Below are positions 1-43,202 of a DNA stretch of 64,000 bases, in pieces. Made by a program: the position numbers and the translations under genes. The notes under the pieces were generated by a model. It searched no databases, was not told where the DNA came from, and was given only the letters and a program-made list of their open reading frames with translations. The DNA comes from Pecten maximus (Eukaryota). How positions within the stretch are numbered: position 1 is the first letter of the stretch; each line of letters opens with the position of its first letter. The stretch covers positions 12,028,001 to 12,092,000 of the forward strand of contig NC_047027.1 of NCBI RefSeq assembly GCF_902652985.1, in the 5' to 3' direction.

Positions 1-3000
1 ACCGTGCTAACAAACTGGATTGAAGGAGACACGATGAGCTAAGGTTGACACCTAGACCGTGCTAACAAACTGGATTGAAGGAGGCATGATGAGCTAAGGT
101 TGACACCTAGACCGTGCTAACAAACTGGATTGAAGGAGACATGATGAGCTAAGGTTGACACCTAGACCGTGCTAACAAACTGGATTGAAGGAGACATGAT
201 CAGCTAAGGTTGACATCTAGACCGTGCTAACAAACTGGATTGAAGGAGACATGATCAGCTAAGGTTGACATCTAGACCGTGCTAACAAACTGGATTGAAG
301 GAGACATGATCAGCTAAGGTTGACACCTAGACCGTGCTAACAAACTGGATTGAAGGAGACATGAGGAGCTAAGGTTGACACCTAGACCGTGCTAACAAAC
401 TGGATTGAAGGAGGCATGATGAGCTAAGGTTGACACCTAGACCGTGCTAACAAACTGGATTGAAGGAGACATGAGGAGCTAAGGTTGACATCTAGACCGT
501 GCTAACAAACTGGATTGAAGGAGACATGATGGGCTAAGGTTGACACCTAGACCGTGCTAACAAACTGGATTGAAGGAGACATGATGAGCTAAGGTTGACA
601 TCTAGACCGTGCTAACAAACTGGATTGAAGGAGACATGATGAGCTAAGGTTGACACCTAGACCGTGCTAACAAACTGGATTGAAGGAGACATGATGAGCT
701 AAGGTTGACATCTAGACCGTGCTAACAAACTGGATTGAAGGAGACATGATGAGCTAAGGTTGACACCTAGACCGTGCTAACAAACTGGATTGAAGGAGGC
801 ATGATGAGCTAAGGTTGACATCTAGACCGTGCTAACAAACTGGATTGAAGGAGACATCATCAGCTAACGTTGACACCTAGACCGTGCTAACAAACTGGAT
901 TGAAGGAGACATGATGAGCTAAGGTTGACATCTAGACCGTGCTAACAAACTGGATTGAAGGAGACATAATCAGCTAAGGTTGACATCTAGACCGTGCTAA
1001 CAAACTGGATTGAAGGAGACATGATGAGCTAAGGTTGACACCTAGACCGTGCTAACAAACTGGATTGAAGGAGACATGATGAGCTAAGGTTGACACCTAG
1101 ACCGTGCTAACAAACTGGATTGAAGGAGACATGATGGGCTAAGGTTGACACCTAGACCGTGCTAACAAACTGGATTGAAGGAGACATGATCAGCTAAGGT
1201 TGACACCTAGACCGTGCTAACAAACTGGATTGAAGGAGACATGATCAGCTAAGGTTGACACCTAGACCGTGCTAACAAACTGGATTGAAGGAGACATGAT
1301 GAGCTAAGGTTGACACCTAGACCGTGCTAACAAACTGGATTGAAGGAGACATGATGGGCTAAGGTTGACATCTAGACCGTGCTAACAAACTGGATTGAAG
1401 GAGACATGATCAGCTAAGGTTGACACCTAGACCGTGCTAACAAACTGGATTAAAGGAGACATGATGGGCTAAGGTTGACATCTAGACCGTGCTAACAAAC
1501 TGGATTAAAGGAGACATGATGGGCTAAGGTTGACATCTAGACCGTGCTAACTAACTGGATTGAAGGAGACATGATGAGCTAAGGTTGACATCTAGACCGT
1601 GCTAACAAACTGGATTGAAGGAGACATGATGAGCTAAGGTTGACACCTAGACCGTGCTAACAAACTGGATTGAAGGAGACATGATGAGCTAAGGTTGACT
1701 CCTAGACCGTGCTAACAAACTGGATTAAAGGAGACATGATGGGCTAAGGTTGACATCTAGACCGTGCTAACAAACTGGTTTGAAGGAGACATGATGAGCT
1801 AAGGTTGACATCTAGACCGTGCTAACAAACTGGATTGAAGGAGACATGATCAGCTAAGGTTGACATCTAGACCGTGCTAACAAACTGGATTGAAGGAGAC
1901 ATGATCAGCTAAGGTTGACATCTAGACCGTGCTAACAAACTGGATTGAAGGAGACATGATCAGCTAAGGTTGACACCTAGACCGTGCTAACAAACTGGAT
2001 TGAAGGAGACATGAGGAGCTAAGGTTGACACCTAGACCGTGCTAACAAACTGGATTGAAGGAGGCATGATGAGCTAAGGTTGACACCTAGACCGTGCTAA
2101 CAAACTGGATTGAAGGAGACATGATGAGCTAAGGTTGACATCTAGACCGTGATAACAAACTGGATTGAAGGAGACATGTTCAGCTAAGGTTGACACCTAG
2201 ACCGTGCTAACAAACTGGATTGAAGGAGACATGATGAGCTAAGGTTGACATCTAGACCGTGCTAACAAACTGGATTGAAGGAGACATGATGAGCTAAGGT
2301 TGACACCTAGACCGTGCTAACAAACTGGATTGAAGGAGACATGATGAGCTAAGGTTGACATCTAGACCGTGCTAACAAACTGGATTGAAGGAGACATGAT
2401 GAGCTAAGGTTGACACCTAGACCGTGCTAACAAACTGGATTGAAGGAGGCATGATGAGCTAAGGTTGACATCTAGACCGTGCTAACAAACTGGATTGAAG
2501 GAGACATGATCAGCTAAGGTTGACACCTAGACCGTGCTAACAAACTGGATTGAAGGAGGCATGATGAGCTAAGGTTGACACCTAGACCGTGCTAACAAAC
2601 TGGATTGAAGGAGACATGATGGGCTAAGGTTGACACCATTTGGATGTGCTAACAAACTGGATTGAAGGAGACATGATGAGCTAAGGTTGACACCTAGACC
2701 GTGCTAACAAACTGGATTGAAGGAGACATGATGAGCTAAGGTTGACACCTAGACCGTGCTAACAAACTGGATTGAAGGAGACATGATGAGCTAAGGTTGA
2801 CACCTAGACCGTGCTAACAAACTGGATTGAAGGAGACATGATCAGCTAAGGTTGACATCTAGACCGTGCTAACAAACTGGATTGAAGGAGACATGATCAG
2901 CTAAGGTTGACATCTAGACCGTGCTAACAAACTGGGTTGAAGGAGACATGATGGGCTAAGGTTGACACCTAGACCGTGCTAACAAACTGGGTTGAAGGAG

Positions 3001-5710
3001 ACATGATGGGCTAAGGTTGACATCTAGACCGTGCTAACAAACTGGATTGAAGGAGACATGATCAGCTAAGGTTGACACCTAGACCGTGCTAACAAACTGG
3101 ATTGAAGGAGACATGATCAGCTAAGGTTGACACCTAGACCGTGCTAAACAAACTGGATTGAAGGAGACATGATGGGCTAAGGTTGACACCTAGACCGTGC
3201 TAAACAAACTGGATTGAAGGAGACATGATATGACGAGCTAACGTTGACACCTAGACCGTGCTAACAAACTGGATTGAAGGAGACATGATCAGCTAAGGTT
3301 GACACCTAGACCGTGCTAAACAAACTGGATTGAAGGAGACATGATCAGCTAAGGTTGACACCTAGACCGTGCTAAACAAACTGGATTGAAGGAGACATGA
3401 TATGATGAGCTAACGTTGACACCTAGACCGTGCTAAACAAACTGGATTGAAGGAGACATGATGGGCTAAGGTTGACACCTAGACCGTGCTAAACAAACTG
3501 GATTGAAGGAGACATGATATGATGAGCTAACGTTGACACCTAGACCGTGCTAACAAACTGGATTGAAGGAGACATGATCAGCTAACGTTGACACCTAGAC
3601 CGTGCTAACAAACTGGATTGAAGGAGGCATGATGGGCTAAGGTTGACACCTAGACCGTGCTAACAAACTGGATTGAAGGAGACATGATGGGCTAAGGTTG
3701 ACACCTAGACCGTGCTAACAAACTGGATTGAAGGAGACATGATGGGCTAAGGTTGACACCTAGACCGTGCTAACAAACTGGATTGAAGGAGACATGATGG
3801 GCTAAGGTTGACACCTAGACCGTGCTAACAAATTGGTTTGAAGGAGACATGATCAGCTAAGGTTGATACCTAGACCGTGCCAACAAACTGGATTGAAGGA
3901 GACATGATGAGCTAAGGTTGACATCTAGACCGTGCTAACAAACTGGATTAAAGGAGACATGATGAGCTAAGGTTGACACCTAGACCGTGCTAACAAACTG
4001 GATTGAAGGAGACATGATGAGCTAAGGTTGACACCTAGACCGTGCTAACAAACTGGATTGAAGGAGACATGATGAGCTAAGGTTGACATCTAGACCGTGC
4101 TAACAAACTGGATTGAAGGAGGCATGATCAGCTAAGGTTGACACCTAGACCGTGCTAACAAACTGGATTGAAGGAGACATGAGGAGCTAAGGTTGACACC
4201 TAGACCGTGCTAACAAACTGGATTGAAGGAGACATGATGAGCTCAGGTTGACATCTAGACCGTGCTAACAAACTGGATTGAAGGAGACATGATCAGCTAA
4301 GGTTGACATCTAGACCGTGCTAACAAACTGGATTGAAGGAGACATGAGGAGCTAAGGTTGACACCTAGACCGTGCTAACAAACTGGGTTGAAGGAGACAT
4401 GATGGGCTAAGGTTGACATCTAGACCGTGCTAACAAACTGGATTGAAGGAGACATGATCAGCTAAGGTTGACACCTAGACCGTGCTAAACAAACTGGATT
4501 GAAGGAGACATGATGGGCTAAGGTTGACACCTAGACCGTGCTAACAAACTGGATTGAAGGAGACATGATGAGCTAAGGTTGACACCTAGACCGTGCTAAC
4601 AAACTGGATTGAAGGAGACATGATGGGCTAAGGTTGACACCTAGACCGTGCTAACAAACTGGATTGAAGGAGACATGATCAGCTAAGGTTGACACCTAGA
4701 CCGTGCTAACAAACTGGATTGAAGGAGACATGATCAGCTAAGGTTGACATCTAGACCGTGCTAACAAACTGGGTTGAAGGAGGCATGATGAGCTAAGGTT
4801 GTCACTTAAACCGTGCTAACAAACTGGATTGAAGGAGACATGATCAGCTAAGGTTGACACCTAGACCGTGCTAAACAAACTGGGTTGAAGGAGACATGAT
4901 GAGCTAACGTTGACACCTAGACCGTGCTAACAAACTGGATTGAAGGAGACATGATCAGCTAAGGTTGTCACTTAAACCGTGCTAACAAACTGGATTGAAG
5001 GAGACATGATCAGCTAAGGTTGACACCTAGACCGTGCTAACAAACTGGATTGAAGGAGACATGATGAGCTAAGGTTGACACCTAGACCGTGCTAACAAAC
5101 TGGGTTGAAGGAGGCATGATGAGCTAAGGTTGACATCTAGACCGTGCTAACAAACTGGGTTGAAGGAGACATGATGAGCTAAGGTTGATAACTAGACCGT
5201 GCTAACAAACTGGATTGAAGGAGACATGATCAGCTAAGGTTGACATCTAGACCGTGCTAACAAACTGGATTGAAGGAGGCATGATGAGCTAAGGTTGACA
5301 CCTAGACCGTGCTAACAAACTGGATTGAAGGATACATGATGAGCTAAGGTTGACATCTAGACCGTGCTAACAAACTGGATTGAAGGAGACATGATCAGCT
5401 AAGGTTGACACCTAGACCGTGGTAACAAACTGGATTGAAGGAGACATGATCAGCTAAGGTTGACACCTAGACCGTGCTAACAAACTGGATTGAAGGAGGC
5501 ATGATGAGCTAAGGTTGTCACTTAAACCGTGCTAACAAACTGGGTTGAAGGAGACATGATCAGCTAAGGTTGACATCTAGACCGTGCTAACAAACTGGGT
5601 TGAAGGAGGCATGATGAGCTAAGGTTGTCACTTAAACCGTGCTAACAAACTGGATTGAAGGAGACATGATCAGCTAAGGTTGACATCTAGACCGTGCTAA
5701 ACAAACTGGA
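1..5710. repeat. 55-bp tandem satellite, about 104 copies, running off the left edge of the window
   Basis: Unit ACCGTGCTAACAAACTGGATTGAAGGAGACATGATGAGCTAAGGTTGACACCTAG recurs at 1, 56, 111 and onward, with few variant sites (gag/cag/ggg, cc/tc). There are no unique spacers. Confidence 0.98.
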
Positions 5711-6291
5711 GTGGACCTTTCTGTTGAGTACAGGTAGCAAATGACCAGGTGTAACTGGGGATAAGATCGATGGTCCTGGTAATCTACTAATAGTTGCTTT
5801 TTGTTGTAGTAACCTATTTACCCTTTGACTATTACGATACTAATTTTCTAAATATAAATGATGTTTTACAACTGATAATTTGCGCTAGCATGTAACCTGT
5901 TACCAAATCGAAATCCACATTTCTTATTTCTCTGAATCAATATTCAATTGCCGTTTGTCGCTATATCAATTGAAGTCTTTTTGAAAGTCAGTCATTGACG
6001 TACATTGAGTGAAGAAAATGTGATAAACTTTCCCCAAGTATTAGGCCCCGTGAACATAGACAAAAACGATACATCAGAATTGTACCTAACACGGGATTTT
6101 AAATCTCATAAAGAATAAAGAATTCAAAATACTGAATTCTTTTCCTCTGACTCCACCAGCAAAAAAGTTTCAAAAGTCTGTTTCTATTTACATTATAGAA
6201 GACTTTAAACGTATTTAATGTTAAATAGCATTAACTCTAACATCAGATTTCGTATAGAGCAAGACATGACCCAACTACCTAAGTACAAATT

Positions 6292-6810
6292 TAGGTTTGG
6301 TTTGATCTATCATTGTTTAACGTCCTATCAACAGCTTATTCAAGGACGGCCTCCCGTGTTTGCGATATGCATGCGTGTGTGTGAGTGCGTATTTGTGTTT
6401 TTGGGAGGCTGCGGTATGTTCGTGTCAAATCTGCGTATGAGAGTCCGGAACGTTTGCATTTATAGTGTTACCTCACTGAAGCATACTGCCGAAAACACCC
6501 AGCAGGACACCCCACCCAGTCTGACAACGGGCAAACCAGTCGTCCCACTCCCAAAATACAATGTACAGAGCGCTAAGCAGAAGTATGAACTACAATGTTT
6601 AAAAATTCTAGTATGTCTCGACCAGGGATGGATCACAAAGCCTTCTTTACAGTGGTGAACGTGTAACTTAAGGCTAAGTCAGTCACTGTCAAAGAAGACA
6701 TTAGGAAGAAGAAAGCTGTGAAAAAAGAAAAGATGATATACCAAATTTAGTCGCCTTTTACTATCATGCAATGTGACTAGTATGTATAATTCTTACGTCC
6801 TACCTGGTAA
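6292..6810 (-). mobile_element. SINE, degenerate copy (Meta/MESC-like core)
   Basis: Colinear with 6865-7365. Shared segments include CCTCACTGAAGCATACTGCCG, CCAGTCGTCCCACTCC and GACATTAGGAAGAAGAAAG, plus the reverse complement of the AAACCAAACC tail. Confidence 0.7.
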
Positions 6811-6863
6811 TCAGAACTGAGGAGGCTAGTTTACGTAACTGTAATCACGGGCCCAGCATTCCG

Positions 6864-7365
6864 TTTGGTTTGGTTTTATTTGTTTGACGCCCTATTAACA
6901 GCTAAGTTTATTTAAGGACGCCCTCTCGTGTTTGCGATATGCATGCGTGTGGTGAGTGCGTATGTGTGTTTTGGGAGGCTGCGGTATGTACGTGTTATGT
7001 CTCATTGTGATAGGCCGGAACTTTTGCCGATTTATAGTGCTACCTCACTGAAGCATACTGCCGAAGACACCCAACAGGACACTCCTACCGGTTACATTAT
7101 ACTGACAACGGGCCAACCAGTCGTCCCACTCCAAAAATGCTGTGCGCTAAGCAGGAGTAGCAACTACCATTTTTAAAGACTCAGGTATGTCTTGGCCAGG
7201 GGCGAACGCTCAACTTAAGACCAAAAGTGAGGCATTGTCAAGGGAGACATTAGGAAGAAGAAAGTTGTTCAGAAAGAAGAGAAAAGATCAGATCCAAAAT
7301 TTATTCTCCTCTTACGATCATGCAATGGGGGCAGCAGGTACAATTCTTACGCCCTACCCGCAGGG
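6864..7365 (-). mobile_element. SINE (Meta/MESC-like core, AAACC tail)
   Basis: The minus strand reads ...AAAAATGGTAGTTGCTACTCCTGCTTAGCGC...GACTGGTTGGCCCGTTGTCAGTATAATGT...CTTCAGTGAGGTAGCACTATAAA... and ends in AAACCAAACCAAAC. This resembles the mollusc MESC/Meta SINE core, and the same tail occurs at 21450-21488. Confidence 0.72.
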
Positions 7366-7907
7366 AATCCAGCATTCCCACCAGTGTCGACCAGCTCGTA
7401 TTACAACCCGCAATAGACATTCCACGGTGTGATTTTAACTGAATATCTTTCACTCTGACACCCCTAGAGACGGGATAGTCCGTTACACCTAGCGGTATCG
7501 ACGTGAAGCGTCTTCTCTTATTTTTGCAGGAGGATGCGAAAATTATTCACAAAGAATATAGATTTCCACAGAGGTGCTTGAAAATATACGATGTAGAATA
7601 AGACCAGGTGTCTGACTGAGTGAGCGTCGTTTGCATCATCGACGACATCCACAGTACAAAAATTGTTGAAATATGAGTAAAGTCACATTCTCAAAAGCCT
7701 AAGTGAATCCTTAATCCAAATGTATATTATTACCTAAACAGAATATCTATATATCATATTGATAATGCCATAACCTGTACGCATGTGCAAGCCTTGATAA
7801 TTGATAAATTCGACAAAAGAAAGATTATTGAAAGGGTTTTAAAAAGACATAAAATTATAGCATCTAGAAACAAATACTTCAAATAAACGTTAAAGGAGAA
7901 ATGTTGT

Positions 7908-7911
<4 letters not shown>

Positions 7912-7978
<67 letters not shown>
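7912..7978. repeat. compound microsatellite (CT)n(CA)n
   Basis: Directly visible in the sequence. Confidence 0.97.
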
Positions 7979-9639
7979 CACTATCTGGTACTTCAACGCT
8001 TTTTTCTGTTATCTACGTGGTTATGATTTTAGTAATCGGAATAGCAAAAAAATAAATAAATAACGTTCGCAACGATTAAGTACAACAAGCGAATGTCATA
8101 CATGTAACTTACCTTCGTTCAGCATATTCTTAACTGGACATCCTTGCGGATAACTCTGAACTATGGAAGACGAACTTTGATGAATAAATTGTTGATGAAT
8201 ATCCCAATATTAATTGCCATGTAGAGTATTATCGAACTATTCCAACAACCTTTGCACCAGGCAAATGACTGTATTTAGTGAGATCAGCTGAACACTTCCA
8301 TTATGTGAATTATTTACCAAACAAGTTAACCTTGGCGCCAGGAACGCTATTTACCTCAAAATAGGTTTCAAATTATGATTGACTGCTAGAACAGACGAAA
8401 TATCAATTACGAACTCGTAGTTTGTTCACTGTGTCACCTACATGTCAATACATCATTAACGTAATGCCTAATTGACATGTGCTCCTGGGGCTGAAATCAT
8501 CTTCCCTTGATCCACTGAGACTCGGCTTTTATATGTAGACAACCCCTGTTCATGTATTATATATCAGACTTGAGTAGCATGTCATCAGGATCCCATACCT
8601 GAGTACTACTAAATATCGTCTATCATTTTCTAACAAAATATACTAAAAACGGGAGGCCAAGCGCCTGTCGTCCCTCTGTTATTTAGATTAATTTAGAAAA
8701 ACACCATTTCAATGTAAAGTTGATAAAGTCTGTCCTTGTTGCTGTTTTAAATGACGTCCGTATACCGTAACTAGGCGGGGTGTCCAGGAATGACATTTCA
8801 GTATAATTGCACTTTAAATATGTCGGCCCATTACCTGTTTATAAGGCGAACCCCTCTTGAAATAACCTGTACGTGATGATAGGACCAATACTAAACCTGT
8901 CCTGTAGGTTTAGAGTAAAAATTGTAACTGTTCCCTGATTGCACGATTCCTCAGTAGTAAGTAACTGGATATGATATATTGCCGCATTGTCATTTAGCAG
9001 ACGGTTCTTAAGGTGATAATTCCATCCTTGTAAAAGTGCTTAGGACTGTTGGATCCTGACAAAAATGTTTAGCTCCGAAGTCCGACCTCGTAATTTGCCT
9101 CACTTTGGCCTTAAACTTAATTCAGTACGACCTTAATTCTTCCTTGTCTGGAAAGATTTGGCCCCCTGGAAAGGATATGCCGATGTTTCTACATTTGTAT
9201 ATGGGTTGTTCTCTGATTGACGTTAAATGTTGTTAAGAATTAGTTGTCAGTATAATGCGACCGAATTCCCGTGTTCAGGTGCGGTATTTCAAATTTGAAG
9301 GTATAAAACATTATGGGAACCTTTTTAGTCGAAGGTCAAGGTCAGAGCATAGCAGCGACAATTTCGAAAAGTTGTATTCCGGCTCTTACGAAGTGAAACG
9401 ACAACGACATAAATTATACAATTGTAACGTGCACCTGGTCCGTCCCAAGTGTCTCCTGGGATAAGCTGTGCTTTTAGCGCACTTGACTAATGTACTCTCA
9501 ATCGGAATATAATCGGGAATATTTACAAATGATTAATCTATAGGTGACATATAAGAACAGATAAAACGGGCGTGCTGCTTGCCACGGAACCTCTTAAACT
9601 ACAAAACAAACATAACTATAGTAGGCACCGACGCCCACA

Positions 9640-9956
9640 AATACCTAACGTATGTGCTCTCGCCATGCACTGGTACGAGCCGTGGCTGTCGTGCGCGCCG
9701 GCAATGACCAATCAAACACGCCGGCTACCTCGGGAACCGGCAATGCCAGATCAAGCACGCCTATTACTTGCACAGCGCACCGGCTACCTGCGCACCAGCT
9801 TATGAAGCGCAGTAGTAATGCAAGTGCTCCCAGTGTCTACCTTGCGCACTGGCTTATCCAGCCCTGCGCAACAGCAATTCAATTGCTCCCGGCACTGGAA
9901 CCTCGCAGTGGCTTCCTTACGCACCAGCTTCCTTCAGCGCACCAACCATACAATTG
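9640..9956. repeat. degenerate GC-rich tandem repeat, left part of the transposon target; continues at 16865-16980
   Basis: The motifs CAA(G/T)TGCTCCC(GG)CACTG(G/T)AACCT and GCACCAGCTT recur on both sides of the transposon. Confidence 0.65.
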
Positions 9957-10086
9957 TGGGATCGCCAGATTTTGATTGACAGATCAGTTCGACCAATCGC
10001 GTGACGCGTTACAAATAACTTCGGCGACACATGAAACCGCCGCCATTTTGCCCGTCACTGTCGGACTTTTCTGAAGTGTCACAACA

Positions 10087-13000
10087 ATGGTGAAAAGATG
10101 CTGCTGGGGTACCTGTAACACGGACAGCAGGTTCCCCGACCGTCTGGAAGGTGGGGTGACATTTATACCCTTTCCTAAACCCGGCAGGAGTTTGGAAAAA
10201 TGCAAAGAATGGATAAGACTGTGTGGCAGACCACAATCACAACTGAACGAAGAAATCTTGCGTGAGCGTAGTAAAGCCAAACACCTGTTTGTCTGTTCTA
10301 AGGTAATATTGATATTTCAATGTCATATCCTCTTTATATAAATGATAATGTAGTAACTACTTTAGATGACTGCCATGCTCACAGAAATAGGTCGTATGTA
10401 GCGTATGCGTACATGTGTGTGTGTGGGGGGGGGGGGGGGGGGGGGGGGGGGGGATGTACGATACCATACGAATTGTAAAGTATTTCTACCGAGTGTTTGA
10501 ACATGTTTAGCACAGTGCATGTTTCTATAAGAAAAAATCAGCCACAGGGACATGCGTACGCTTGAATCACAAGGACATGTCTAGTCCTTATATACAGCAT
10601 AGGTAATTCTGACTATTTTTTAATATTAATAGCTGTTGTTTACATTTTATGACTGTATATATATATATATCCTATTTAAAGATTTATTTTAAAGGCTAAA
10701 GCAGTTCAGCTCTATGATTTAATAACAACTAACTCTGGCATGAATTCATTTCAATAACAGAAATATTTGTCAGACATACCGGCACTTGTCCAATCTATAG
10801 ATCTATCAAAATGAATTACTTTTAGATGGATATGACACCTGAGACAGCATACATGTATTTAAAAAAAAAAAAAAACAGTAAATGAAATAAAATCCCTCTC
10901 TGCATGCACCTTACACATATAGTACCACAAAAATATAACTATTTATTATAATATATTATACTATTTTAATAAAATGACTTTTACGCGTGCCTTTACTGGG
11001 AATCAAATTTTGTATTTTTTTTTTCATTTACAGTATCTTCATTTTCTTATTGTAGCATTTTGTTGATGGGAAGCCATCCGATTTGTATCCAAATCCAAGG
11101 TCTGCACTTCCCTATGACAGGATAACACCAAGCAGAAAGAGACCAATGCCAAGACCTGATTTGACAAAAAGTACCAAACGAAAAATTCTGGATATCGTGG
11201 ACGAAAACGATAAGTTAGTAATGTTGATTATTTCTATTTAAAAAAAAAATTAAAACACATACATTTATAAACATAGTTATTTCTACATTCTTTTGTATCA
11301 AAACAATTATACAGATCAGGCCTTAATTGAAAAATTGTTTGTTTTTTTTTTTTTTTTCAAATCTGAGCTATGTTTTTTTCAATGGGTAGGTAAAAAAAAA
11401 ATTTGTATATGGTTCAGGGCCCACATGAGGCATTTTGGCAGGTAGTGTTAAAACACAATATTTGAATTTCACCTTAGTCTGGGTGGGAAAATGGAACAAA
11501 CCTGGCACATCCTCAAATGAACCTAGCTGTTAGTTAATAGGACATGGTACATATATAACAAAATCAAAATATTGACACTTCCACACACTTTGGAGACACT
11601 CTGGACAAGGTGATTCATTTTAATATGTTGCTATGAATTCAACACAATATGTAACTCCAAATAAAAACAAATACTTGTATTTAATATCTTTATTTTGATT
11701 ACAGCATCGAAATGGAGAGCATTGTGGTGCCATCTGAAGTGCAATTAGACATGCAGAAAGATGACAATTTGCTTATGAAAGGTAACTGTTTACAATACCC
11801 CATATTTTACTTTGCAAAATAGGGTTTGAAATGGTCAACATAAAAATGGGTAAGTTTTTCCACCAGAGTTTTCATGGTTTCCTTATGTGGAAGGATTCTG
11901 TCAATGTTGAAGTCCTGTTTTGTGTAAGTTACAAAGTCACAAAATTGGGCACCTGTGACCAAAAGCTGCCCTTGCACTTGGAACCAGTGCATATGCATAT
12001 TAGATAATTCATATTTCCCTCCATTTTTTTCTAAGAAGAATTTGTTGCTGTTGGTACATGCATCTTCAATTGTCATGTCTCTCACAGAATATGGGCACTT
12101 GATTTCAACTAATCCAGTAACCATTTTGTCACAGACAATTGCATCTGGGGTAGCTCCTATAAAGGGTAGCTTGGGGTTTATCACAAGGCCAATATCATGG
12201 ATATGGTTGCCACTTTGTTTGATGTACATTTGTTTGGCTATTAGTTCATTTGCCTTTCCATAAGATGTTGGAGCTGATGTAAAACTTCGCTCCTGAAAAG
12301 TGCTCATGAAAGCATCATTAATAATTTTTTTTCGAAGCATTATCCTACCAAAGTTTGATGCAGTGATTCTTTTCTTTCTCTCTGTGAACCACAGTTGTGT
12401 ATCTGACTGAGAGCGAGTTGACTTTTCAATATCCTGTGCCTCTGTTTGGGTTAATGATACATCCCCCCATTCTGGTGTTGGTGCTGGTGCATCAATACAG
12501 CTGGGTAGCTCCTTAGGAAATGCTATATCTCCACATTTGTCAGAATTTACCTCCCTTGGTTGAGTGACAGGTTGTATAAGGGGAGCCTGAAATTATAAGG
12601 GAAGTCTGCCTGATATTATACAAACTAAAATTAATGTGATCATCACAACACAAATATGTTAAATTGAATAATAAATTAATAATATTATGGATGATACAAG
12701 TATTTCATTGAAATAAGAGAAGATACACTGTAATTAAATCAATAATTTAAAGAAAATACTTTTAATTTTTGTCGTTTGATGTATATTATCCTCTCTTATC
12801 TTTGATTGAACAGTTGTTATCTGTGTAATATTTGCTATATGTACATAGCAAAAATTGCTATTAGTTTGTGTTTGTATTTTAAACAGATATTTCCTATTTT
12901 CCAGAAACACAACCTTTAGACCTACTGGCTCTGGCTGCTGAAAACAGAAGATTAGACCAGGAGCATGCCAAACTTATATCAAACAACGCACGTTTAAGTG

Positions 13001-14001
13001 AAGGTTATTCCAAAATGATACTTCAATATGAACAGTTATGTCGAAAGACAACTTCCCATGAGGTACAGGGGGATTCCAAGGCCATGTTCAGCTGTAATAA
13101 TTTGAAACCATCAGATTACCAGTACTACACCGGATTTTCCAGTGACAGATTTCACAATTTGGTCAAGTTTTTTATCCCATCAGAAGAAGAGCCATTTACA
13201 TTTACAAAAACAGTGAGTGGAACAAAAAATATTTCTTTGGAAGACCAGCTTCTTCTTGTGCTGATGAAGTTACGACAAAATTTTGATTTTGTACATTTAA
13301 GTAACCTATTCATGTTTTCTTCTCAGGCTTGCAGCACAATATTTTCCAATTGGATTAATTACATGTTTTTCAAACTTGGTTCACTTGTGATTTGGCCCAA
13401 AAGAGAGGAGATAGTGAGGAATATGCCATCGAAGTACAAAGAGGATTTCCCTGACACGATTGTTATCATCGATGGAACAGAACTCAAAATTCAAAAACCA
13501 AGTGCATTAAATCGACAGAGTCAGTGCTACTCGGACTATAAATCCTGTACTACCTTGAAAGCTCTAGTTGGTGTTGATCCCAGAGGATCGGTTATCTTTG
13601 CCTCAATGCTTTTTTCTGGATCTATTTCGGATAAAGTTTTAACCAAAGAAAGTGGTTTTCTTAACCTTCTGACAGACCTCATTGAGCAACAGAAAATAAA
13701 CAGAGGGGATGGTATCATGGCTGACAAGGGTTTCCTTATTGAGGATGAACTGAAGGAACTTGGACTCAAGTTAAATATTCCACCATTTGCTTCAAGTGGA
13801 GCACAGATGAAGCCAGGGGATGTTTCAAAAACTATAAAAATTGCAAAACACAGAGTTCATGTGGAAAGAGCTATTGCACGTATCAAGCAATTTAAAATTT
13901 TGTCTGACAAAATAAGCCTATCTTTATTTGGCTGTATAAACCAAGTTTGGTTAGTTTGTAGTTTGTTGACAAACTTCATGCCATATTTAATACAAGACTG
14001 A
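10087..14001 (+). CDS. THAP-domain DDE transposase (Harbinger/ISL2EU type), 4 exons, 515 aa
   Basis: Exons 10087-10302, 11056-11213, 11705-11781 and 12905-14001. All introns are GT-AG, phases 0/2/1 join in frame, total 1548 nt. The THAP motif C-x4-C...FP...W...VCSK|HF is completed across intron 1. An HTH-like segment LEDQLLLVLMKLRQN follows. Catalytic motifs are IIDGTE, MADKGF and RVHVERAI. Confidence 0.92.
10414..10453. repeat. (GT)n followed by a ~30-nt poly-G tract in transposase intron 1
   Basis: Directly visible in the sequence. Confidence 0.9.
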
Positions 14002-16780
14002 TCTTTTTTGTATTGTGCCTTGTACATGTTCCATTGATACCTCTTTTAGTATACAGTCTAAGATATTTCATGTATTTTATGTTATGCATGGGATATATTG
14101 GTTTGGTTTATTTTATTTTACCTAATACAACCAGGGTCATTTAAGAATGAGCTGGAGTACCCAGAGGAAAACGACCAACCTTCCATCCTAAGGTCACTTC
14201 CAGGCAGTTGCCACAGGGTTTCGAACTTGCAACCCAGAGGTGAAGGGCCAGTGATAAAATGTTATGATCAGGACACCTTGACCCCTTGGCTTCCACGGCC
14301 CATTTAATATGCATGTGAAAGATATTTGGTATGATGTTTAAAATCCCTAGAAAATCAAGTGTTTAACCTTATAAATAATAGTTATAAAACAATTACATTT
14401 GAATATCATGCAGCATACATACATGATAGCTTAGAGCTGAACCAATGAACTGGGGGCCTAATGGGGTATTAACTGTACTTGTGTCACTTCCATTTTCCAC
14501 CAAGTATGAAATGGGGCTGTTGCTGAGACTCTTTAAATGAGCAATATCGGATGTCGTCAGGGGCATTTTCCTGCAATGTAATTAATATATGTGATAAATG
14601 ATATTTAGGTTGAATTCTCTCAACTGTATATTCACATGTTAAACTTCTGCAGTTTAATTGATGAAATTGAAATATGTACATGAATGTATAAACAACAAAA
14701 TTAACCAATTTGTCAATCAAAACCTCAAAGGAAGTTCCACTACACTCTGTGTGTTACAAATAAATTAAACGATATATTGAATGGTGCGACTCATCCTACC
14801 AAAGGAATATGTATCTCAAAGAGTATCATACTATGTATACCTATTGTCAACAAAAGAGGCAATAACTGGTTTCCTTTTCCGATTCATATTGAGTGGTCTG
14901 GATATGACCATCTGCGACACAGGCTCTGGCTTTATTTTATGTCCTCTCGGTTTATCCCACTGCTGTGGTAAACTTGTTGATGAAGGCTGAGAGGGAACTT
15001 CTTTCAATCCAGCGATTTTCCACTCCTCAATTATAACTATCACAGCAAGAATGTGTGCACACTGTCCAGATATTCTGTAAATTTTGGTTTTCAATTATTG
15101 ATCTCTTGCAAACATATCGATGGCAATTGCAGTTGATTGTATTAATATTGACTTTTAAATACATTCCGGTATATACAATAAGGACTGCAAATAAAGAAGG
15201 TAAGATCTAAACAAAGATTTAAATGCTGTTATAAAAATGTACAGTAATTAAATTAGTTTAAAAAAAAAAACCAAGATTGATCAGATAAATCGATTTGTAA
15301 TTTGAATCAAATTTTTATTTTAAAATGTCCTTTAATTCAGTGCCATAATTATTGAGTTACTGAAGTATGTCCACACATATATATATATACATACCCATTG
15401 TTTAATGTTTAAAAATCTGTTTAACAGCTGCATGCATGTTAATATCAGGAACATCAAAATCCGTAAAAAAATTAACTGCTGGAAATGAAAATTTTACTTG
15501 TAGAAAATGTAATGTTGTTTCTGATAGGTAAAAGGAATAATCTTGGTTGTGTAGATGGACTGGACTGGGATGATCAGGATTAATTACCAGGTAGCTCAGT
15601 CATTAGTGTGTCTGGTAATTATAAGAGTACCGGCTGTCCCAGGTTTGAATCCTTTTTTCATTTGATATCTAATTAGGCTGTCGTAGGATGTTAAAAACCT
15701 GATAGCCATACATATTGTAGTCGCTATCATGATATGTGTAATGTAGCCTATTTAGGGCCTATACATCGGTACAATATGTTTTGACATATTCCATCATTGC
15801 TTTTAAATCATTTCATTTTAAACGATATGCATGCACCATTGCAACACGAATTTAATTTTATGATTTAAAAAGAAATATTTTGTGCAAGGACCCCATAACT
15901 TGTTTTAACAGCTTTGGCTTCCATTGGATATTGTAGTGAAAATCCAGGGAGAGCGAGCTGTTTTCTCAACAATATTTTGAAACTTTTTTTCTACTTTGAT
16001 AGATCTACTGATAGGCCTAATTTGGTTACATTGTTACAGTACTAGTCATCACATCAACTCTACTGTCAATAAGGCAAACAGAACATTCCCTTCCGGAATC
16101 AATTTATCTGCTTTGTTGATATCGATCTGTGATATATATTAATATGCTATGTGTACTAAACTGTAGGCCTAATTATTCTGAATTTTAATGTCTGTATTCA
16201 TGTTGTTTTCACAATTTTTAATTAAAATGATTTTTTCTTAATTTACACTTAATATTGTTCTATTTTCACTAGATCAGAATGGGAGATGCAGTGCCATTTC
16301 TATTGCATTTGTGACTCCACTAACGTCATGCATATTTCTTTTTGCCTTTCGTATTCATTCAACGTAACCTTACACACATAGGCTAACATGTTAGGCCTAA
16401 TTGATCACACACTGTACATGCACTCAAACAAAATACAAAAAGAAATAAAAACAAACAAACAACAAACAAATCAGAACATCTTAACTTGTTTATTATTCCT
16501 ACCCAGCTTTACAGCTGCAATGCGCATCTGTGATCTTCCGTTGATCGAGGTCTATATTGATGACAGTTGAGTGAGGGTCCTCCGACTTCCTCTGGCTGCG
16601 GTAAACCCGGGCCGATATACACGCATTTCTGCTGCTTTCGCCGCTAATTGTTACACATTTGATGTAGCTACCTCTTGCAAAAGAAATGGCCTTTTGTTTC
16701 TGTCGCAAGGAAGGAGTATAAGGCAGGTATGCCGCAGAAACGTCGTCGGGTATGTCGCCGAAAGCGGTCTTGCCCGCCAT
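11807..16780 (-). CDS. SWIM zinc-finger plus YqaJ/lambda-exonuclease-like protein, 4 exons, 479 aa
   Basis: Exons 16780-16503, 15074-14841, 14570-14423 and 12586-11807. All introns are GT-AG, phases 2/2/0 join in frame, total 1440 nt. The SWIM motif CSCKAG|ISGQCAH is completed across intron 1. YqaJ motifs are TRSQS..WFTERKKRITASNFG, YGKANE, GATPDAIV, VEIKCP and QVQGQL. Confidence 0.92.
14098..14302 (-). mobile_element. tRNA-derived SINE inside the transposon
   Basis: The minus strand shows an A-box-like GTGGAAGCCAAGGGG, a B-box GTTCGAAACC, a V-domain-like GTTTTCCTCTGGGTACTCCAG and the tail AAATAAACCAAACCAA. Confidence 0.65.
15588..15700 (+). mobile_element. degenerate tRNA-like SINE head inside the transposon
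   Basis: GGTAGCTCAGTC resembles an A box and GGTTTGAATCC resembles a B box. Confidence 0.4.
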
Positions 16781-17809
16781 ATTTGTTTACGTTTGATGAC
16801 GGGCCTTTCCTACTTGACAACCGTCGTTAAGGTGGGCGTGGTTAACTTTGATCTGGCGATCCCACAATTGCTCCCGACACTGGAACCTGGTAGTGGTTAA
16901 ACTTGCTCACCAGCTTCCTACAGCAATACAAGTGCTCCCGGCACTGTAACCTTGTGCATCTGCCTCGTACAGCGCAACAACACACTACCTCACGACTAAT
17001 GGACACTTATTCAGCGACCACCAATCGCTACATGAGAGACTTCTCAGTCTCTCCACAAAGACTTACTCAGCCTTCGTAGCTACCGGGGTTTGAAACCTGT
17101 CAGTTTCAATTAGAATCACGCCCACTTTTCAGCGGCATATTCTCCCCCCGATCACAGTTTGTAGCTGGCTATTTATCTGCCAGGCTATTCGGCGAGCCGT
17201 TGGTACCATTCATTTTCATATTGCACATTTCGCTCTAAAACCTTGTATCATCTTTATATACAAACACATTTATATGGTATATTATCTTTCTTATCAATCA
17301 AGGCTTAACAATTGTATGTAAAAGGGAGATAACTCCAACAGAAAACCAATTTTCCTTACACAATTATGATACGACAAAATCGTTAATTTTGGCCAACCAG
17401 CAATTAGAAATTTCTAACTTTACATACCAAGCTTGCTCTTGAAACCAGAGGGGTCAGCAATGTTCCGAGACGTGTTTTCAACAACAAACGTCTGCTTTAT
17501 TTATGATACCCTTCAGGTGACCATGCTATTTAAATCGAACTCCGAAACTAATAAAGCCCTTAATTATGTTAATTACTTCGTTCCACAGGGAAAGCATAAC
17601 TGTGAGATGTTGATTGCATTACGGAGACCTACATTGCACACACGTGGTGCTAGTTTCTGTTGAACAAGTTCAAATCCTACGGGGAAATGTTAATGGATAT
17701 TTCGCCTGTTCAGTGTAAGTAAGCATTCCGCAATTTGCATGTAATCATAAACCGAATGTGGCAATTAGAAATCCATCAAGGCGATCGTGTAATGACATTT
17801 TTTGTGTTT

Positions 17810-18090: not shown

Positions 18091-18352
18091 TACCTTACAT
18101 ACGTTGATAGTTACCGTTAATCATTATAGTATTAATGTTAATATGCTTTCGTACATCACAAATAGGCATTTCTATACACACCATCTGTAATATCCTGATG
18201 TATGGAACTGTACAAACGGACAGGTCTTTTTAACTACACTAAAGTAATAATTATTATATTGTTCGATGAGCATGGTTTGGTTTGGTTTATTTTGTTTAAC
18301 GTCCTATTAACACCATGAGCAGGTAAATATACCGGATAACTTTTATACACTA

Positions 18353-21229: not shown

Positions 21230-21488
21230 GCCGATGTGTCACAGTGGTATAAGCTGCGGGTATTTCTAGCTAGGCGATTGGGTGTCGTAGATCGTGCGTT
21301 CGAGGCCCGGTCAGAGCAGGAGTAATGAAGTTGTCTTCTTCGTCAATTGTGTTACTGTGTTATATCTCAAATGATTAGCACAATGTATCATATGCACAAT
21401 GTGTTGGTGATTCGAAGATTTCTTTCGTAGTTGTAATGACCTTAGCTGTTAATAGGACGTTGAACAAAATAAACCAAACCAAACCAAA
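21230..21488 (+). mobile_element. tRNA-derived SINE
   Basis: Head GCCGATGTGTCACAGTGGTATAAG (A-box-like) and GTTCGAGGCCC (B-box-like). Tail GACCTTAGCTGTTAATAGGACGTTGAACAAAATAAACCAAACCAAACC, shared with other copies in the window. Confidence 0.7.
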
Positions 21489-23121
21489 TTGTACTGTGAT
21501 GAATATATATATCATTGGTCACACTGTTAGAATTACTTCTTTACCCTATATTAATTTTTCAAGTAATTCCTATCCTGCAAACAAAGTTTTGCAAGGATCC
21601 CTCGTTATCTGGATTCTGACCGTTTATATTAATTCCTTGACTCATATAAACGTTCAAGTTTTTATCAGGAGTTAATTAAATGTATAATTTGTTGTCAGTT
21701 AAGGTGATTTTTTGGTGCTAATTACAATACAGGATAGTGACACAATATCATAAAAGTCCAAAATGGTAGAATGTTTAAAAAAATATTTACAAATTCGTGA
21801 GATGACATTCTTCAAAATTAGGATTAGTTGACCAGAGTTGGAAAGTGCATCTAAGGAGGACAGTGGTAAACGGTAACACAATCATATATGGGGTATAATT
21901 TGGTTCCATGGTTTCTATAGACATTGCATTGACGGGTGGCTTAATCTACGAGTATAATAGACATTAACATTTACAACTTGTCAGGTCTATTACATACATG
22001 ACATTTACAAATGACTTACTATATTACACGTGTGTATAAATTTCAATTGCGAATAGCCTAGTATCTTATAGACATTACATTGAAAAATCGAATCAGGAGT
22101 CAATATATACGCAGTGCTATTTTTCAGTTAATACAAGTACAGATAAATTGCTGAATAGACTTTGCAAAATATCCCTTGTAGTTAAAATTGGTTTAGCATA
22201 TAGTAAACACTTAATATTATTTACATTTAATGCACACACCATTATCACAATTGTTTTGTACTAAAAATAGTGCAACCACTGTTAATCTATGATAACAATT
22301 CCACATTTATGGAGAATGCATGCATTGGAGTATTCTCCCTTTAACTAAACATTTCAGTTTTCAGGGTACATATTTGCTTGCCGTTACATTCAACCAGTCC
22401 TTGGGAAGGTGTAGACATTGAACAGATAATGAACTAATTGTTTTACCGGAAATACAATATTACTTTAAACATATTCCTTGAACTATCATACGCGAAACAT
22501 TAAACCATAACGATGATATCGTTTCCTTCACATCAAAACTGTTTCAAAGTATACAGCGTTGGAAACAAACATGCCGGCTTTTGTCATTCGGCGTCGTGGT
22601 TAGTTTAGTCATATTTATTTCCTACAGACTGAATAATACATAATACATATAAACATTCCCACAAATATTGTAAATGAATCATTAACCATACATGTCTATA
22701 AATACAAAGACACAAAAAACGCAACGTACGTACATGAATATCAGTAATACATCATGATGTTCTGCCAGTCGGCCCGTTTGAAAATAGATGAATACAGATA
22801 CCTTGCCGCATATTTATCCAGTCTAAAATGAATACAATTTCTTTATAAAAAATGTCAAATAATATTTCATAGCTTGCTATAATTAGTAAACTTTCTCCAA
22901 AGTCTATTTCATGTAAATGATGGGATCATTGTATCTCTTGGTTACAATATGAATTAATGACTAATTTGACGATTATGAATTGTCACCACGTTTTACAGGA
23001 AAACGAAAAGATATACAAAGTATGTATTGAAATAGCGATAATAATGGTATAAGAACCATCACAATCATTTTTATGGTTTTCGATATCTAGTGATTTCAAC
23101 CATCATCCGCGATACATCAAA

Positions 23122-26100
23122 TCACCCATCATGTAATGGAGAAACATAATGCTCATCTGTAGTCCAAAACTTCTTGCTTAAATTAACATTCATACTTTCA
23201 TTTAATTTGACTAGCAACTGTTGAAACACTATATTTTTTGTTATAGAATTTTCCAGGTCTGGAAAATGAACAGCAGACACGTCAGTTTTACGAGGAAAAT
23301 AATCAATTTCTATCTCCTGTAACATCATTCTTCTAAAAGCATAAAAATCCTTAATAGCTTGAAACGACATTTTATCTTAATATGTATTAACAAGTTCATC
23401 CGTCCTTTCTCCATTGAAGAAAGACAGTGATACCGAACGAATAAGGGAATATTCACTAAGAACATGCTGTCGATGGTTAACTTGTGCATTGAGATGCATT
23501 GCTTTCATCCAATAAATATTGTTTTGTCTCATATAACTGTATGTTTCCTCGAATTTTATTTCTAAGATAAACGAAGGGCATGTCCTCATATTAAATGTAT
23601 TTAAAATTACAGCATTTTTAATTACATTTCGAAACATTATCCGTAAGGGAGGTCTAGCATTTATCGATTCATCCCTACTGATGTTAAATCTGTCTAATGT
23701 ATGATTTGAAAATTTTGCTTCTATATCTTGCATATCAGCTGGAGTGAATTTGCTATCTAAAAGCGCCCGAGACAACTCGGGTGATATTTTAGCAAGATCA
23801 GTACATAAGCGCACTAACGGTCGAATGAAAAGCGATTTGTGCATTGCTTTCGTATGATATAAATACGGATGTGTTAACCTCGTTATGAAATGCACGTGTA
23901 CAGGAGCACTCATTAGTGTAGAAACGTTATCTGTGGCAAACATTTGTAAAAATACTAACTCGGCCATTTTGTCCGGAGAAACGTCGACCACAAACTTTTT
24001 ATGTAAAAATTCTATCACGTCAGAATGATCGAAAATCTTAGCAAAATACAAAGGAGTAAATGAATGTACATTTGTACACTTTAGAACGCGTCTGCGGAAA
24101 GCTTTATACATAGTCATTAACAGAGATAAATGACCTTTTATAGCAGCCCTGTGTACCAAACTTAAGTTTTTAGACTTTGGTTTACAGACATCAGCAAATC
24201 TTAGTTTGTTCAAATTCAACATTTGAGATAACATGTATGAAGAAGTCTTGTCAAAGTTCTTTGTCAGATTATAAAAATCCCTTTCGTAGTAATGACGGTA
24301 AAACTGTACTTTACCGTTGTTTATGTAAGACACTTTGTAAGTCATGAATAGACGCGACTTTAAGTGATCCATCAAGTAGATATCTGCATGCGACACACCA
24401 AGGGAAACCAGGTCTATAGCTTGAGAGGAAGGAAGCCCGCGTACAGTCATGCCCCTCTCTATCAAGAACTTCACTGCGACATAATTACCACCCATCACAG
24501 CATGGTGTAGTACATTGTAACCATCTCTATCATAGCATGTTTCCCAAAATGAAATAAGTTGGGATTTCAATACATTAAATGCCTCATCTTTTGTAAAATA
24601 AATCCAGTACCTATTATTTTCATTCCTTATTACTCTGTGAATAAGACTTTCCTCGAAGGTTTTGTTACAAAAGTCAGAGGTGTATTGCGACAATAAGCTT
24701 AACATACCCTTTGCAGGTTTTTCGACAGAAAAGAACGCCCTAAGTAGTTGTTTATCGGCGGATACAACCATATTCCTCGGCTGGAACATAATGATAGAAT
24801 ATAGGATGAATGTGTTACCCTTCATTACGGCCAATCTGTGGTACTTAGGAAAGTCCACTGATCGCTGGATATCTGATATTTTCTCCCGTAAAATCTGAAA
24901 TATTCTATAAATGACCGTTTCTTCCTTGCTCAAAATGCCATCATACTCAAAAAAATGTTGTTTCTTTAAAAGATCTATAATTGAACAGTTATCACATAAA
25001 GTGTTCTCGTGGTGGTGTGGTAAGTTGTCAAATGCAATATCTATAACATTTTTATTCATGTTGTTTACGTCTAATAAAAGTGATATATTAGACCTCAGGC
25101 AAAAAGGTATAATTACCTGATGATTTCCTATTTCAGCCGCAACATGTAGAAAAGTATTTAAGTTGTTGTCTTTTGTTGACGTACTCAACCTGTATTCATC
25201 TAGTAGAAGTAAAATGTCATCTTTACTTGTATATTCTACTCCTAAGACGCGGTAATGAAACAATCCCCTACCTGCTTTGTCTACCAGTTGTTTATTCGCA
25301 ACAACATAATGAGGGAGGATATAACGCCGCATACGACATCAATGCGTTACACAAAACGGCAGAGTGTATCGGCAGAGATCCATTTTTCGCAGACAAAAAT
25401 ACATTACTATCCCCAGCGCTTATAATATATTGTATCATTTCCCATTCGTTATTACAAGCTGCGTAGTGTAACGGCGTATTACCTGATTCATCTTGTACCG
25501 TCCAGTTTAGATATATGCCTTGAGACCGTAGATTTTCCGCTATTTCTTTTTCTCCGTTCATTGCGATAAGATGTTCTATTGTAGTCCCTAGTTGACACAT
25601 GCCATTATCTAAAGCCGTTTTCTCGTTGATATTGAACAATCGGAGGGAGTGTCTATTTGTTACATTGTATAAATGTTCACATTTGTCCGTAAAACTTCCT
25701 CCCTTGTCTAAAATAAGATCAAGTATTTCCGATCGGTTATACCTTACAGCCGTAAGAAGTGGGGTTCTACCTCCATACTCCCGACAATGTAGAGCGTTGG
25801 TTGTTTGTGCTAGTAGATAAGATACTATTTCAGTATAACCTCCTTGAACGGCAACTTCTAAAGCGGTTAAACATTCTATTAATCTTGTATCATCGTTTAG
25901 AACGAATGTCACATTCTCTAACTCTTCGTATTGATTGGGATCTGATAAATCAAAAGAAAAAATATCACTTATGTTAGAATATGGATGCCACTGCATTCGT
26001 TTAGTGATGTTAGCGATCCAGTGAATTCTATCTTCACATTTAACACAAACGTCCTTGACACTATGATTTAACAGTAATAGCACAGACCGCAGGTGACCAT

Positions 26101-29100: not shown

Positions 29101-29534
29101 ATGTTAAATTTTGTACAGTTGTGTAACACATGTAATCCTACAGAAAGGTCTTCTGTGAATGGAGTCCTTACCCTCCACCATTCTGGGGCGAAAGCCTTCA
29201 CCATCTCGTCGACATTTTTGGGCAAATCTGATGAATTAATCTCTTCCCATTTGATGTGTCTTTTTCTTGCCCTGTATTTGTTATATAACATGATTTGTTC
29301 TTTCCATTTGATACACGTCGGACACCATGTTGAAAACTTTCGTTGGGTCTTGCTACAGTTTCTTCCACAGATCGGCAGTTGTGCGCATGCTCCATACTTT
29401 ATGTCGTGGTGCAAAGCTAGAAAAGTACCCTCCAGATATTCTGATATTCCCTTTGTCGTAACAGAAATTGCTACAGCCACGTCAAGCCAATTGGAAAAGT
29501 CGATGTCTCGAATCTGTTGATGTAGCGAATCCAT
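23122..29534 (-). pseudogene. Paralog A: HEPN(DUF4559/CXorf38-like)-TM-NACHT-ankyrin gene, disrupted (pseudogene or truncated 1174-aa form)
   Basis: Coding exons 29534-28640 and 27921-23122 with a phase-1 GT-AG intron at the same position as in B and C. Motifs: RNALFAH, TM YLLASLIVCILILVIGWVV, Walker A AKMGYGKS, Walker B VVIDAIDEC. There is a 4-nt insertion (CCCT, ~25312-25315) relative to C and an in-frame TAA at 23379-23377. Confidence 0.85.
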
Positions 29535-42900: not shown

Positions 42901-43202
42901 TTTCATATTTTCATACAGACAGAATTCTTCAATTATACAATCATTACATGGTAGATATGTCCTTTCAAACTATTAAGGAATTTTATGCATTTAGGAGGAA
43001 ATCATTAACTGATATGGAAAGTGATATTTTCCCACGTTATTCCAATGTATCTACGACTCACTTTCGGTCCTTGGCATATTCAATTAATGAACTTCTATTG
43101 AGTAAACAGAAATTAGTTATGATAAAGAAGTTAACGGCGTTTAATCCGAGAATAAAGTTCTGGCATAAGATCGATAAATTGCCATTTCCATTATACGAAT
43201 AA
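36926..43202 (+). CDS. Paralog B: intact 1918-aa HEPN(DUF4559/CXorf38-like)-transmembrane-NACHT/STAND NTPase-ankyrin repeat protein
   Basis: Exons 36926-37865 and 38386-43202 (AAAG|gtagg ... ttcag|GTTGT, phase 1, 5757 nt open). The N-domain FSNWL...CKQNC...CPTCVKWK...W...WP...EMVKVFAP...NCTKF...VRNALFAH follows the CXorf38 pattern. TM FAIALIISFICIIIILLNIG at 37763-37822. Walker A AEMGYGKST at 38547, Walker B YVVIDAIDEC, sensor FITTR. Ankyrin motifs include GLNAVHLAA, GRTPVLTAV, GNTPLHYAA, GYNVLHHAV and FTPLYFA. Confidence 0.9.

Follow-up and report, generated by a model that had tools for sequence, protein, structure and literature searches.

A young ISL2EU transposon of Pecten maximus whose transposase gene holds the exonuclease's catalytic exon in a spliced intron, with the reverse nesting predicted

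We describe an ISL2EU DNA transposon of Pecten maximus in which two genes, a transposase and an exonuclease, face each other and run past each other instead of ending tail to tail. The element lies in a 64,000-nucleotide stretch of contig NC_047027.1 (assembly GCF_902652985.1, positions 12,028,001 to 12,092,000 of the forward strand), here called the window, whose positions are used throughout. The YqaJ catalytic exon of the exonuclease lies in a transposase intron that is spliced in public contigs, and the DDE catalytic exon of the transposase lies in a predicted intron of the exonuclease. Elements with this layout form one derived branch of ISL2EU, and the arrangement probably arose once, by duplication of the central part of a tail-to-tail ancestor followed by loss. 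We place the probability of this reading as a whole at about 60%.

The element and its interleaved genes

The element spans 9955-16866 (6912 bp, ~6.9 kb). It is flanked by AT target-site duplications (9953..9954 and 16867..16868) and bounded by terminal inverted repeats (TIRs) of 16 bp, located from the sequence, at 9955..9970 (+ strand, beginning TGTGGG) and 16851..16866 (− strand). The TIR pair is perfect over the 16 bp, inside the 6-259 bp range of ISL2EU, and sibling copies end alike. Among 11 copies compared, all six with both ends have AAT...ATT flanks, giving an A|AT|T target, though the flanking letters formally also allow a reading with the TIR extended by one base and no duplication. 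The TGTGGG terminus is present in all close copies keeping that end, in place of the usual ISL2EU start GG.

We consulted public contigs of 8 of 24 listed runs; X7 alone among them is recorded as RNA, and X17 looks DNA-like. Four of the eight contain an empty-site joint from 9949 to 16864, which skips 6914 positions (6912 + 2) and comes from either an allele or a paralogous repeat, two origins that look alike here. Nine loci match the DDE exon at 98-100%, and both reading frames are intact in two of nine close copies, the window copy and L004. Judged by its sequence, this is an intact, young ISL2EU transposon with predicted cut-and-paste activity.

Gene models were built by trying all nearby GT/AG pairs for open frames. 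The transposase model (+ strand) is a 515-amino-acid THAP-HTH-DDE protein, with six open variants that differ at intron 2 only. Its exon 1 (10087..10302) encodes the THAP domain (PF05485, E=2e-5), exon 2 (11056..11213) the THAP end and a linker, and exon 3 (11705..11781) further linker; the donor of exon 3 falls 25 nt past the exonuclease stop codon. Intron 3 (11782..12904; 1123 nt, phase 1) precedes exon 4 (12905..14001), which carries the HTH (PF13613, E=2e-11) and DDE (PF13359, E=9e-40) domains with residues D340, D424 and E471 in place. The exonuclease model (− strand) is a 479-amino-acid SWIM-YqaJ protein and the single open combination among the candidate splice sites. Exons 1 (16503..16780) and 2 (14841..15074) hold the two halves of SWIM, the second with an LPQQW motif; the homologs P0121 and P0122 match Pfam SWIM at E=0.0035, under the curated cut-off. 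Exon 3 (14423..14570) ends in a conserved GSALSYH motif. After the predicted intron 3 (12587..14422; 1836 nt, phase 0) comes exon 4 (11807..12586), the YqaJ or lambda-exonuclease catalytic domain (PF09588, E=1e-14), with D368, E381 and K383 present.

Reading along the + strand, one meets THAP and the linker exons, next YqaJ (−) and DDE (+), and finally exonuclease exons 3, 2 and 1 (−); the start codons lie 132 bp (transposase) and 86 bp (exonuclease) inside the element ends. The anatomy set out in the preliminary description stands: inward genes starting just inside the TIRs, six GT-AG introns in frame, the split motifs THAP CSK|HF and SWIM CSCKAG|ISGQCAH restored by splicing, the YqaJ exon within transposase intron 3 and the DDE exon within predicted exonuclease intron 3, and coding exons of the two genes that nowhere overlap.

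A candidate exonuclease poly(A) signal, AATAAA at 11689..11694 (−), falls in the pyrimidine tract of transposase intron 2; if used, it would carry the exonuclease 3' untranslated region (UTR) over transposase exon 3. With related copies oriented DDE on +, the exonuclease stop codon of L052 (3700-3711) abuts the opposite-strand transposase splice donor, and in L015 (near 3859) an AATAAA overlaps the exonuclease stop codon.

The preliminary assignment to ISL2EU also agrees with domains, target site and TIRs. The element has a THAP+HTH+DDE transposase, a second gene with a YqaJ domain and an AT duplication in A|AT|T; its DDE domain is nested among THAP-DDE plus YqaJ elements, apart from Harbinger-like rows, in a tree without named Repbase sequences. 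PIF/Harbinger was ruled out by an AT rather than TWA duplication and a YqaJ rather than Myb/SANT second gene. Spy (a single open reading frame, no THAP, AAA|TTT target, no duplication) was ruled out by the two genes, the THAP domain and the target xAATTx. The element shares with described ISL2EU elements the THAP-HTH-DDE transposase, the YqaJ gene, the A|AT|T target with AT duplication, short TIRs and an animal host (PMC4482050). It differs in length and TIR start (6.9 kb and TG, against an ISL2EU average of ~4.8 kb and a start that is usually, though not strictly, GG; PMC4482050), and in that its genes are interleaved, not tail to tail.

Splicing of the two genes

Transposase intron 3 is spliced GT..AG in five of the eight runs (X1, X3, X5, X7, X18), from four studies. 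Intron 2 is spliced in four of the eight and intron 1, joining exon 1 to 11056, in two (X3, X18). All three junctions occur in a single X3 contig, and the same three are present in the NCBI protein P0002 of Pecten maximus, where 412 of 414 residues are identical. Because the contigs bear variants common to sibling copies, they document expression of the family and do not single out this locus. Intron 1 also has an alternative acceptor, used by X1, at 11034, 22 nt upstream and out of frame. In copy L005 the donor of intron 1 is GG. Contigs of X1 and X5 show this change too, and it seems that a splice-defective copy is being transcribed.

For the exonuclease, intron 2 (exon 2 to exon 3) is spliced in one of the eight runs, in one X8 contig of depth 2. 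The spliced forms of introns 1 and 3 were found in none of the eight; contigs can prove presence, not absence, and the null result does not count against these two introns. Contig cover of YqaJ is low, and no ranking of the two genes was drawn from it. One X3 contig stops exactly at 12586, the intron 3 acceptor, which is a weak hint of its use. In 10 of 13 interleaved loci the intron 3 donor immediately follows GSxLSY[QH], on the far side of the DDE exon. Residues 6-479 of the spliced model align with P0121 (a 485-amino-acid protein from a 1743-nt contig) at 49%, and the model is also colinear end to end with P0122 (49%) and P0123 (41%). Our prediction of the reciprocal exonuclease intron rests on this conserved donor and these colinear full-length homologs, which give it strong comparative support.

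Contigs of X17, from a second organism (organism B), cover the whole length of the family, mostly at 90-99% identity, pointing to either a close relative or horizontal transfer. One of them (11725-12359) crosses the boundary of transposase exon 3 and the YqaJ exon.

Interleaved elements form one derived ISL2EU branch

Is this layout simply how ISL2EU elements are built? A comparison of gene layout across loci, made in the window genome (G000) and in metagenomes, shows that it is not. G000 yielded 61 loci including that of the window, 60 of them with a DDE domain: 26 are tail-to-tail, 22 have YqaJ upstream of DDE (11 of which are this family and its older subfamily) and 12 are without YqaJ. The 80 metagenome loci comprise 53 tail-to-tail, three interleaved (L061, L062, L064) and 24, mostly short, without YqaJ; L063 and L070 have DDE followed by the exonuclease N-terminal part with no YqaJ between. 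Thus all 79 other relatives with both catalytic domains placed are tail-to-tail, and all fall outside the interleaved branch.

In a DDE tree of 47 G000 rows, from which 9 near-copies and short rows were left out, 19 rows (12 interleaved, 7 without YqaJ) form one branch with 100/100 support, and the 26 tail-to-tail rows lie outside it. When metagenome loci are added (138 rows), a single change with support 99 separates 12 interleaved from 79 tail-to-tail elements. The YqaJ tree (FastTree) agrees, dividing 11 interleaved from 70 tail-to-tail rows with support 97. These congruent trees indicate that the YqaJ exon was rearranged within the lineage. We reject its capture as a nested second element because of this congruence and because of the single TIR pair, which surrounds both genes in six copies. 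Rooting used five rows that we take, from their motifs, to be Harbinger-like (of 12 outgroup stretches, 5 were usable, 6 had no frame under the filter and L172 was itself ISL2EU). The interleaved branch is then nested (99), with a tail-to-tail sister (96). Nineteen database proteins chosen from the top matches (molluscs, a hemichordate, fish) join the interleaved branch, their layout unseen. The interleaved elements are therefore one derived branch of ISL2EU.

Families of this branch have diverged deeply and are ~45-76% identical in the DDE core. Between families, nonsynonymous differences (pN) in DDE and YqaJ are 0.14-0.32 against synonymous differences (pS) of 0.70-0.86, the latter close to saturation, which shows purifying selection on both genes. 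The THAP profile, seeded from the window family, missed THAP in tail-to-tail families, whose 5' structure rests on a motif check.

We found no published description of the interleaved layout in the literature on ISL2EU, IS4EU, YqaJ, introns or antisense RNA and nested or interleaved genes, a search of texts to which figures, Repbase and Dfam entries and one supplement each of PMC4482050 and PMC4122938, any of which might already show it, did not belong. ISL2EU-11_CGi, with proteins of 534 and 477 amino acids, is by its size a candidate for a catalogued element of this kind. The passages on ISL2EU available from PMC4482050, PMC4122938 and PMC9179366 give neither gene orientation nor introns.

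Dozens of different ISL2EU families are present in G000, and several of them (e.g. L021, L033, L034) have many copies that are intact and identical. It also has YqaJ frames of ~970-1000 amino acids that are not paired with a DDE match in the lists made.

Origin of the layout

How could two genes come to be threaded through each other? The rooted tree gives a tail-to-tail ancestor, THAP-DDE> <YqaJ-SWIM. In the scenario that we favor, the block 'DDE> <YqaJ' would have been duplicated in tandem to give THAP..DDE1> <YqaJ1..DDE2> <YqaJ2..SWIM. The duplicated AG|G-type sites would let each transcript join the 5' exons of its gene to the more distant of the two catalytic copies, after which DDE1 and YqaJ2 would be lost. 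Both introns would arise in one event, with neither protein changed. We regard such a single origin, by tandem duplication of the central block and reciprocal loss, as somewhat better than an even bet.

In the sister loci L066 and L069 both genes are intronless. Of the 79 tail-to-tail loci, 24 continue in one frame across the GSxLSYQ motif, which went unrecognized in the remaining 55. The exonuclease intron therefore looks clade-specific, and duplication and loss become likely because the sister lineage reads straight through the junction. The donor after the motif is CAG|GT in 5 of 10 loci, and a G follows the phase-0 acceptor in the window copy, L010, L018, L061 and L062. Tandem duplication of an exonic AGGT has been described as a way to gain an intron (PMC3443670): the duplicated AG|G(T) provides both donor and acceptor, and the protein stays as it was. 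The event proposed here would differ from this route in producing two introns, on opposite strands and in two genes, from one duplication. Within this family, L001 (G000:C1:11233800-11243700) contains the stretch that matches window 10699-13185, including the YqaJ exon, twice in tandem, with the second copy decayed, so internal tandem duplications do occur.

Several observations weigh against this scenario. A profile search detected no second DDE or YqaJ remnant at the predicted places. AG|G is also the general splice consensus, which makes the proto-splice signal weak, and the transposase junction in the window copy reads AAG|AAA, so that AG|G is not kept there. The 55 tail-to-tail loci without a recognized motif leave their intron state unread. 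Some tail-to-tail families have linker introns, and pre-existing introns in an unsampled ancestor would serve equally well. The larger trees are FastTree or quick IQ-TREE reconstructions, and the outgroup branch is long. Finally, persistence of the layout at ~45-76% DDE-core identity could reflect selection rather than irreversibility.

A different origin, in which one intron-bounded catalytic exon moved as a block through gap repair, template switching or recombination between copies, would need no duplication. It is consistent with the lack of detected remnants and with the intron just ahead of the YqaJ domain in the tail-to-tail loci L027, L029, L034 and L059. However, the sister lineage as sampled either has no introns or runs on through the junction motif, and we consider a block move possible, at rather long odds. 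A single inversion was rejected on anatomical logic, as it would yield THAP-YqaJ and SWIM-DDE chimaeras and another gene order.

Under duplication and reciprocal loss, the element would still be an ordinary two-protein ISL2EU. Both genes would be transcribed inward from the ends, and the transposase would bind the TIRs, cut, and paste into A|AT|T. The SWIM-YqaJ protein would be a needed partner that presumably trims DNA ends, a role that we assume by analogy with lambda exonuclease. The layout would be a frozen accident, hard to reverse, with any damping by transcriptional collision or double-stranded RNA only a by-product.

Transcript overlap and a possible regulatory role

Because of the gene anatomy, each polymerase must traverse the catalytic exon of the other gene, making antisense overlap of the primary transcripts obligatory. 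The preliminary description put this overlap at more than 2.2 kb over both catalytic exons. Its obligatory nature holds, and the figure is probably too small, since the closest AATAAA on the minus strand (11694) is past transposase exon 3 and contigs reach 16071-16247. A spliced X3 contig runs past the transposase stop to 14244. Unspliced contigs starting at ~14219 end between 16071 and 16247 in seven runs, close to a candidate ATTAAA at 16221, whereas the DNA-like X17 continues. X3 and X8 have further contigs past 16071-16247, and the contigs ending at 14244 and starting at 14219 meet only at a high-copy repeat (14215-14260). The transposase messenger RNA probably has a long putative 3' UTR (14002..16250, +), antisense to exonuclease exons 3 and 2.

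From this anatomy, antisense control by collision or double-stranded RNA is plausible. A stronger claim is that the layout is a selected regulatory device, in which the transcripts exclude each other by collision, splice-site masking or double-stranded RNA and so time or limit transposition. Besides the obligatory overlap and the contigs that reach the vicinity of 16221, the retention of the layout across deeply diverged families speaks for it, as do exonuclease exon-3 donors only 24 (L016) and 62 nt (L018) past the end of the DDE domain. However, the contigs carry neither strand nor level, and the two that would establish the long 3' UTR meet only at the repeat. In the same genome, families with tail-to-tail genes have fared at least equally well.

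Maize MuDR, with mudrA and mudrB, offers a parallel, as it too has two genes pointing inward from TIRs and makes antisense RNA (PMC3440606). The MuDR genes are tail-to-tail and their antisense RNA stems from failed termination, whereas in the window element reading through the partner's exon is needed for either messenger RNA. In the MuDR work, extra antisense RNA did not suppress sense transcripts (PMC3440606), and this precedent counsels caution about antisense regulation. We consider selection for such a device doubtful. The same goes for a combined view, a tentative idea, in which one tandem duplication braided the two genes of a widespread animal ISL2EU clade, and the forced antisense RNA, with the transposase 3' UTR lying over exons and splice sites of the exonuclease, became a switch that times or limits exonuclease expression and transposition.

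Is one gene protected by the other?

The preliminary description also proposed a physical lock that hinders loss of one gene without the other; interleaving would then be kept because neither gene can go alone. Geometry and damaged copies speak against it. The coding exons are disjoint, and the 780-nt YqaJ exon could be deleted from its 1123-nt intron without touching transposase codons. Four of the nine close copies (L002, L003, L005, L006) combine an open transposase frame with a damaged exonuclease frame, although two of them are damaged only close to the C-terminus and some of the lesions may be assembly indels. Loci without YqaJ are also commoner within the interleaved branch (7 of 19 rows, including near-copies) than outside it (2 of 28). 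What a lock would explain is that five deletion derivatives without the YqaJ exon (L011, L012, L047 and L054 compared with L010; L055 compared with L015) also lack the adjoining stretch, which in L055 includes transposase exon 2. These five larger deletions, which take the YqaJ exon together with the transposase linker stretch, are ordinary non-autonomous decay, and we judge a lock improbable.

Decayed multi-copy derivatives of the L010/L014 family without the YqaJ exon are L011, L012, L013, L047, L048, L049, L053 and L054, probably an amplified non-autonomous subfamily.

That the nesting is not reciprocal at all, with the YqaJ exon forming either a small independent gene driven by a promoter of its own or a second nested element, would fit the missing spliced form of exonuclease intron 3 and is very unlikely given the colinear homologs, the donor conserved in 10 of 13 loci, the one TIR pair around everything in six copies and the agreeing gene trees.

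Repeats and neighboring genes in the window

A high-copy fragment at 14098..14300 within the element (no strand assigned), which we take to resemble a short interspersed element from its B-box-like motif, has depth in the thousands and loose contig ends at 14215-14262 in all eight runs. It is one of several high-copy short-repeat fragments in the window, the others lying at 11498-11532, 18273-18312 and 21435-21489; two are inside introns of the element. The element is hosted by a degenerate GC-rich repeat (9700-9954 and 16867-16960), of which a unit at 9880 recurs at 16865. Positions 1-5500 are a tandem satellite of ~95-100 copies of a 55-bp unit, 95-98% alike. Three related gene copies lie at 23377-29573, 36782-43202 and 53733-60853, with 75-92% DNA identity and the first inverted. 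Each has a long frame of NPHP3_N-type NTPase and ankyrin repeats and an upstream DUF4559 frame. The middle copy (36782-43202) has an open frame of 1609 amino acids; the other two are split into several frames.

Significance

Two other transposon systems invite comparison. In the tnpA/tnpD genes of En/Spm (CACTA), the coding sequence of one protein lies within an intron used for the other. There, both lie on the same strand and are produced by alternative splicing of one transcript, whereas the genes of the window element are opposed and reciprocally nested. KolobokE resembles the window element as a DDE transposon with a lambda-exonuclease-like PD-(D/E)xK nuclease; it belongs to another superfamily and has the nuclease placed downstream of its transposase domain (PMC9587614).

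We conclude that the interleaved layout is real, holds across a clade and adds a new form to a known kind of transposon; the origin proposed for it is plausible and unusual, and its regulatory role is only a candidate. Reciprocal nesting of two essential genes in one DNA transposon did not appear in the literature searched, and the layout is a rare candidate for a double intron gain from a single duplication. Annotation based on open reading frames would call such elements divergent, THAP-less or SWIM-less, features that the layout explains. With both frames intact in two copies, the function of YqaJ, an open question in the ISL2EU literature (PMC4482050), becomes testable with separated cDNAs. 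Young elements of both layouts, interleaved and tail-to-tail, share one genome and so offer a natural experiment on convergent transcription. The layout marks a recognizable sub-lineage of ISL2EU; many molluscs, a hemichordate and fish have transposases of this sub-lineage too, the layout being unseen there.

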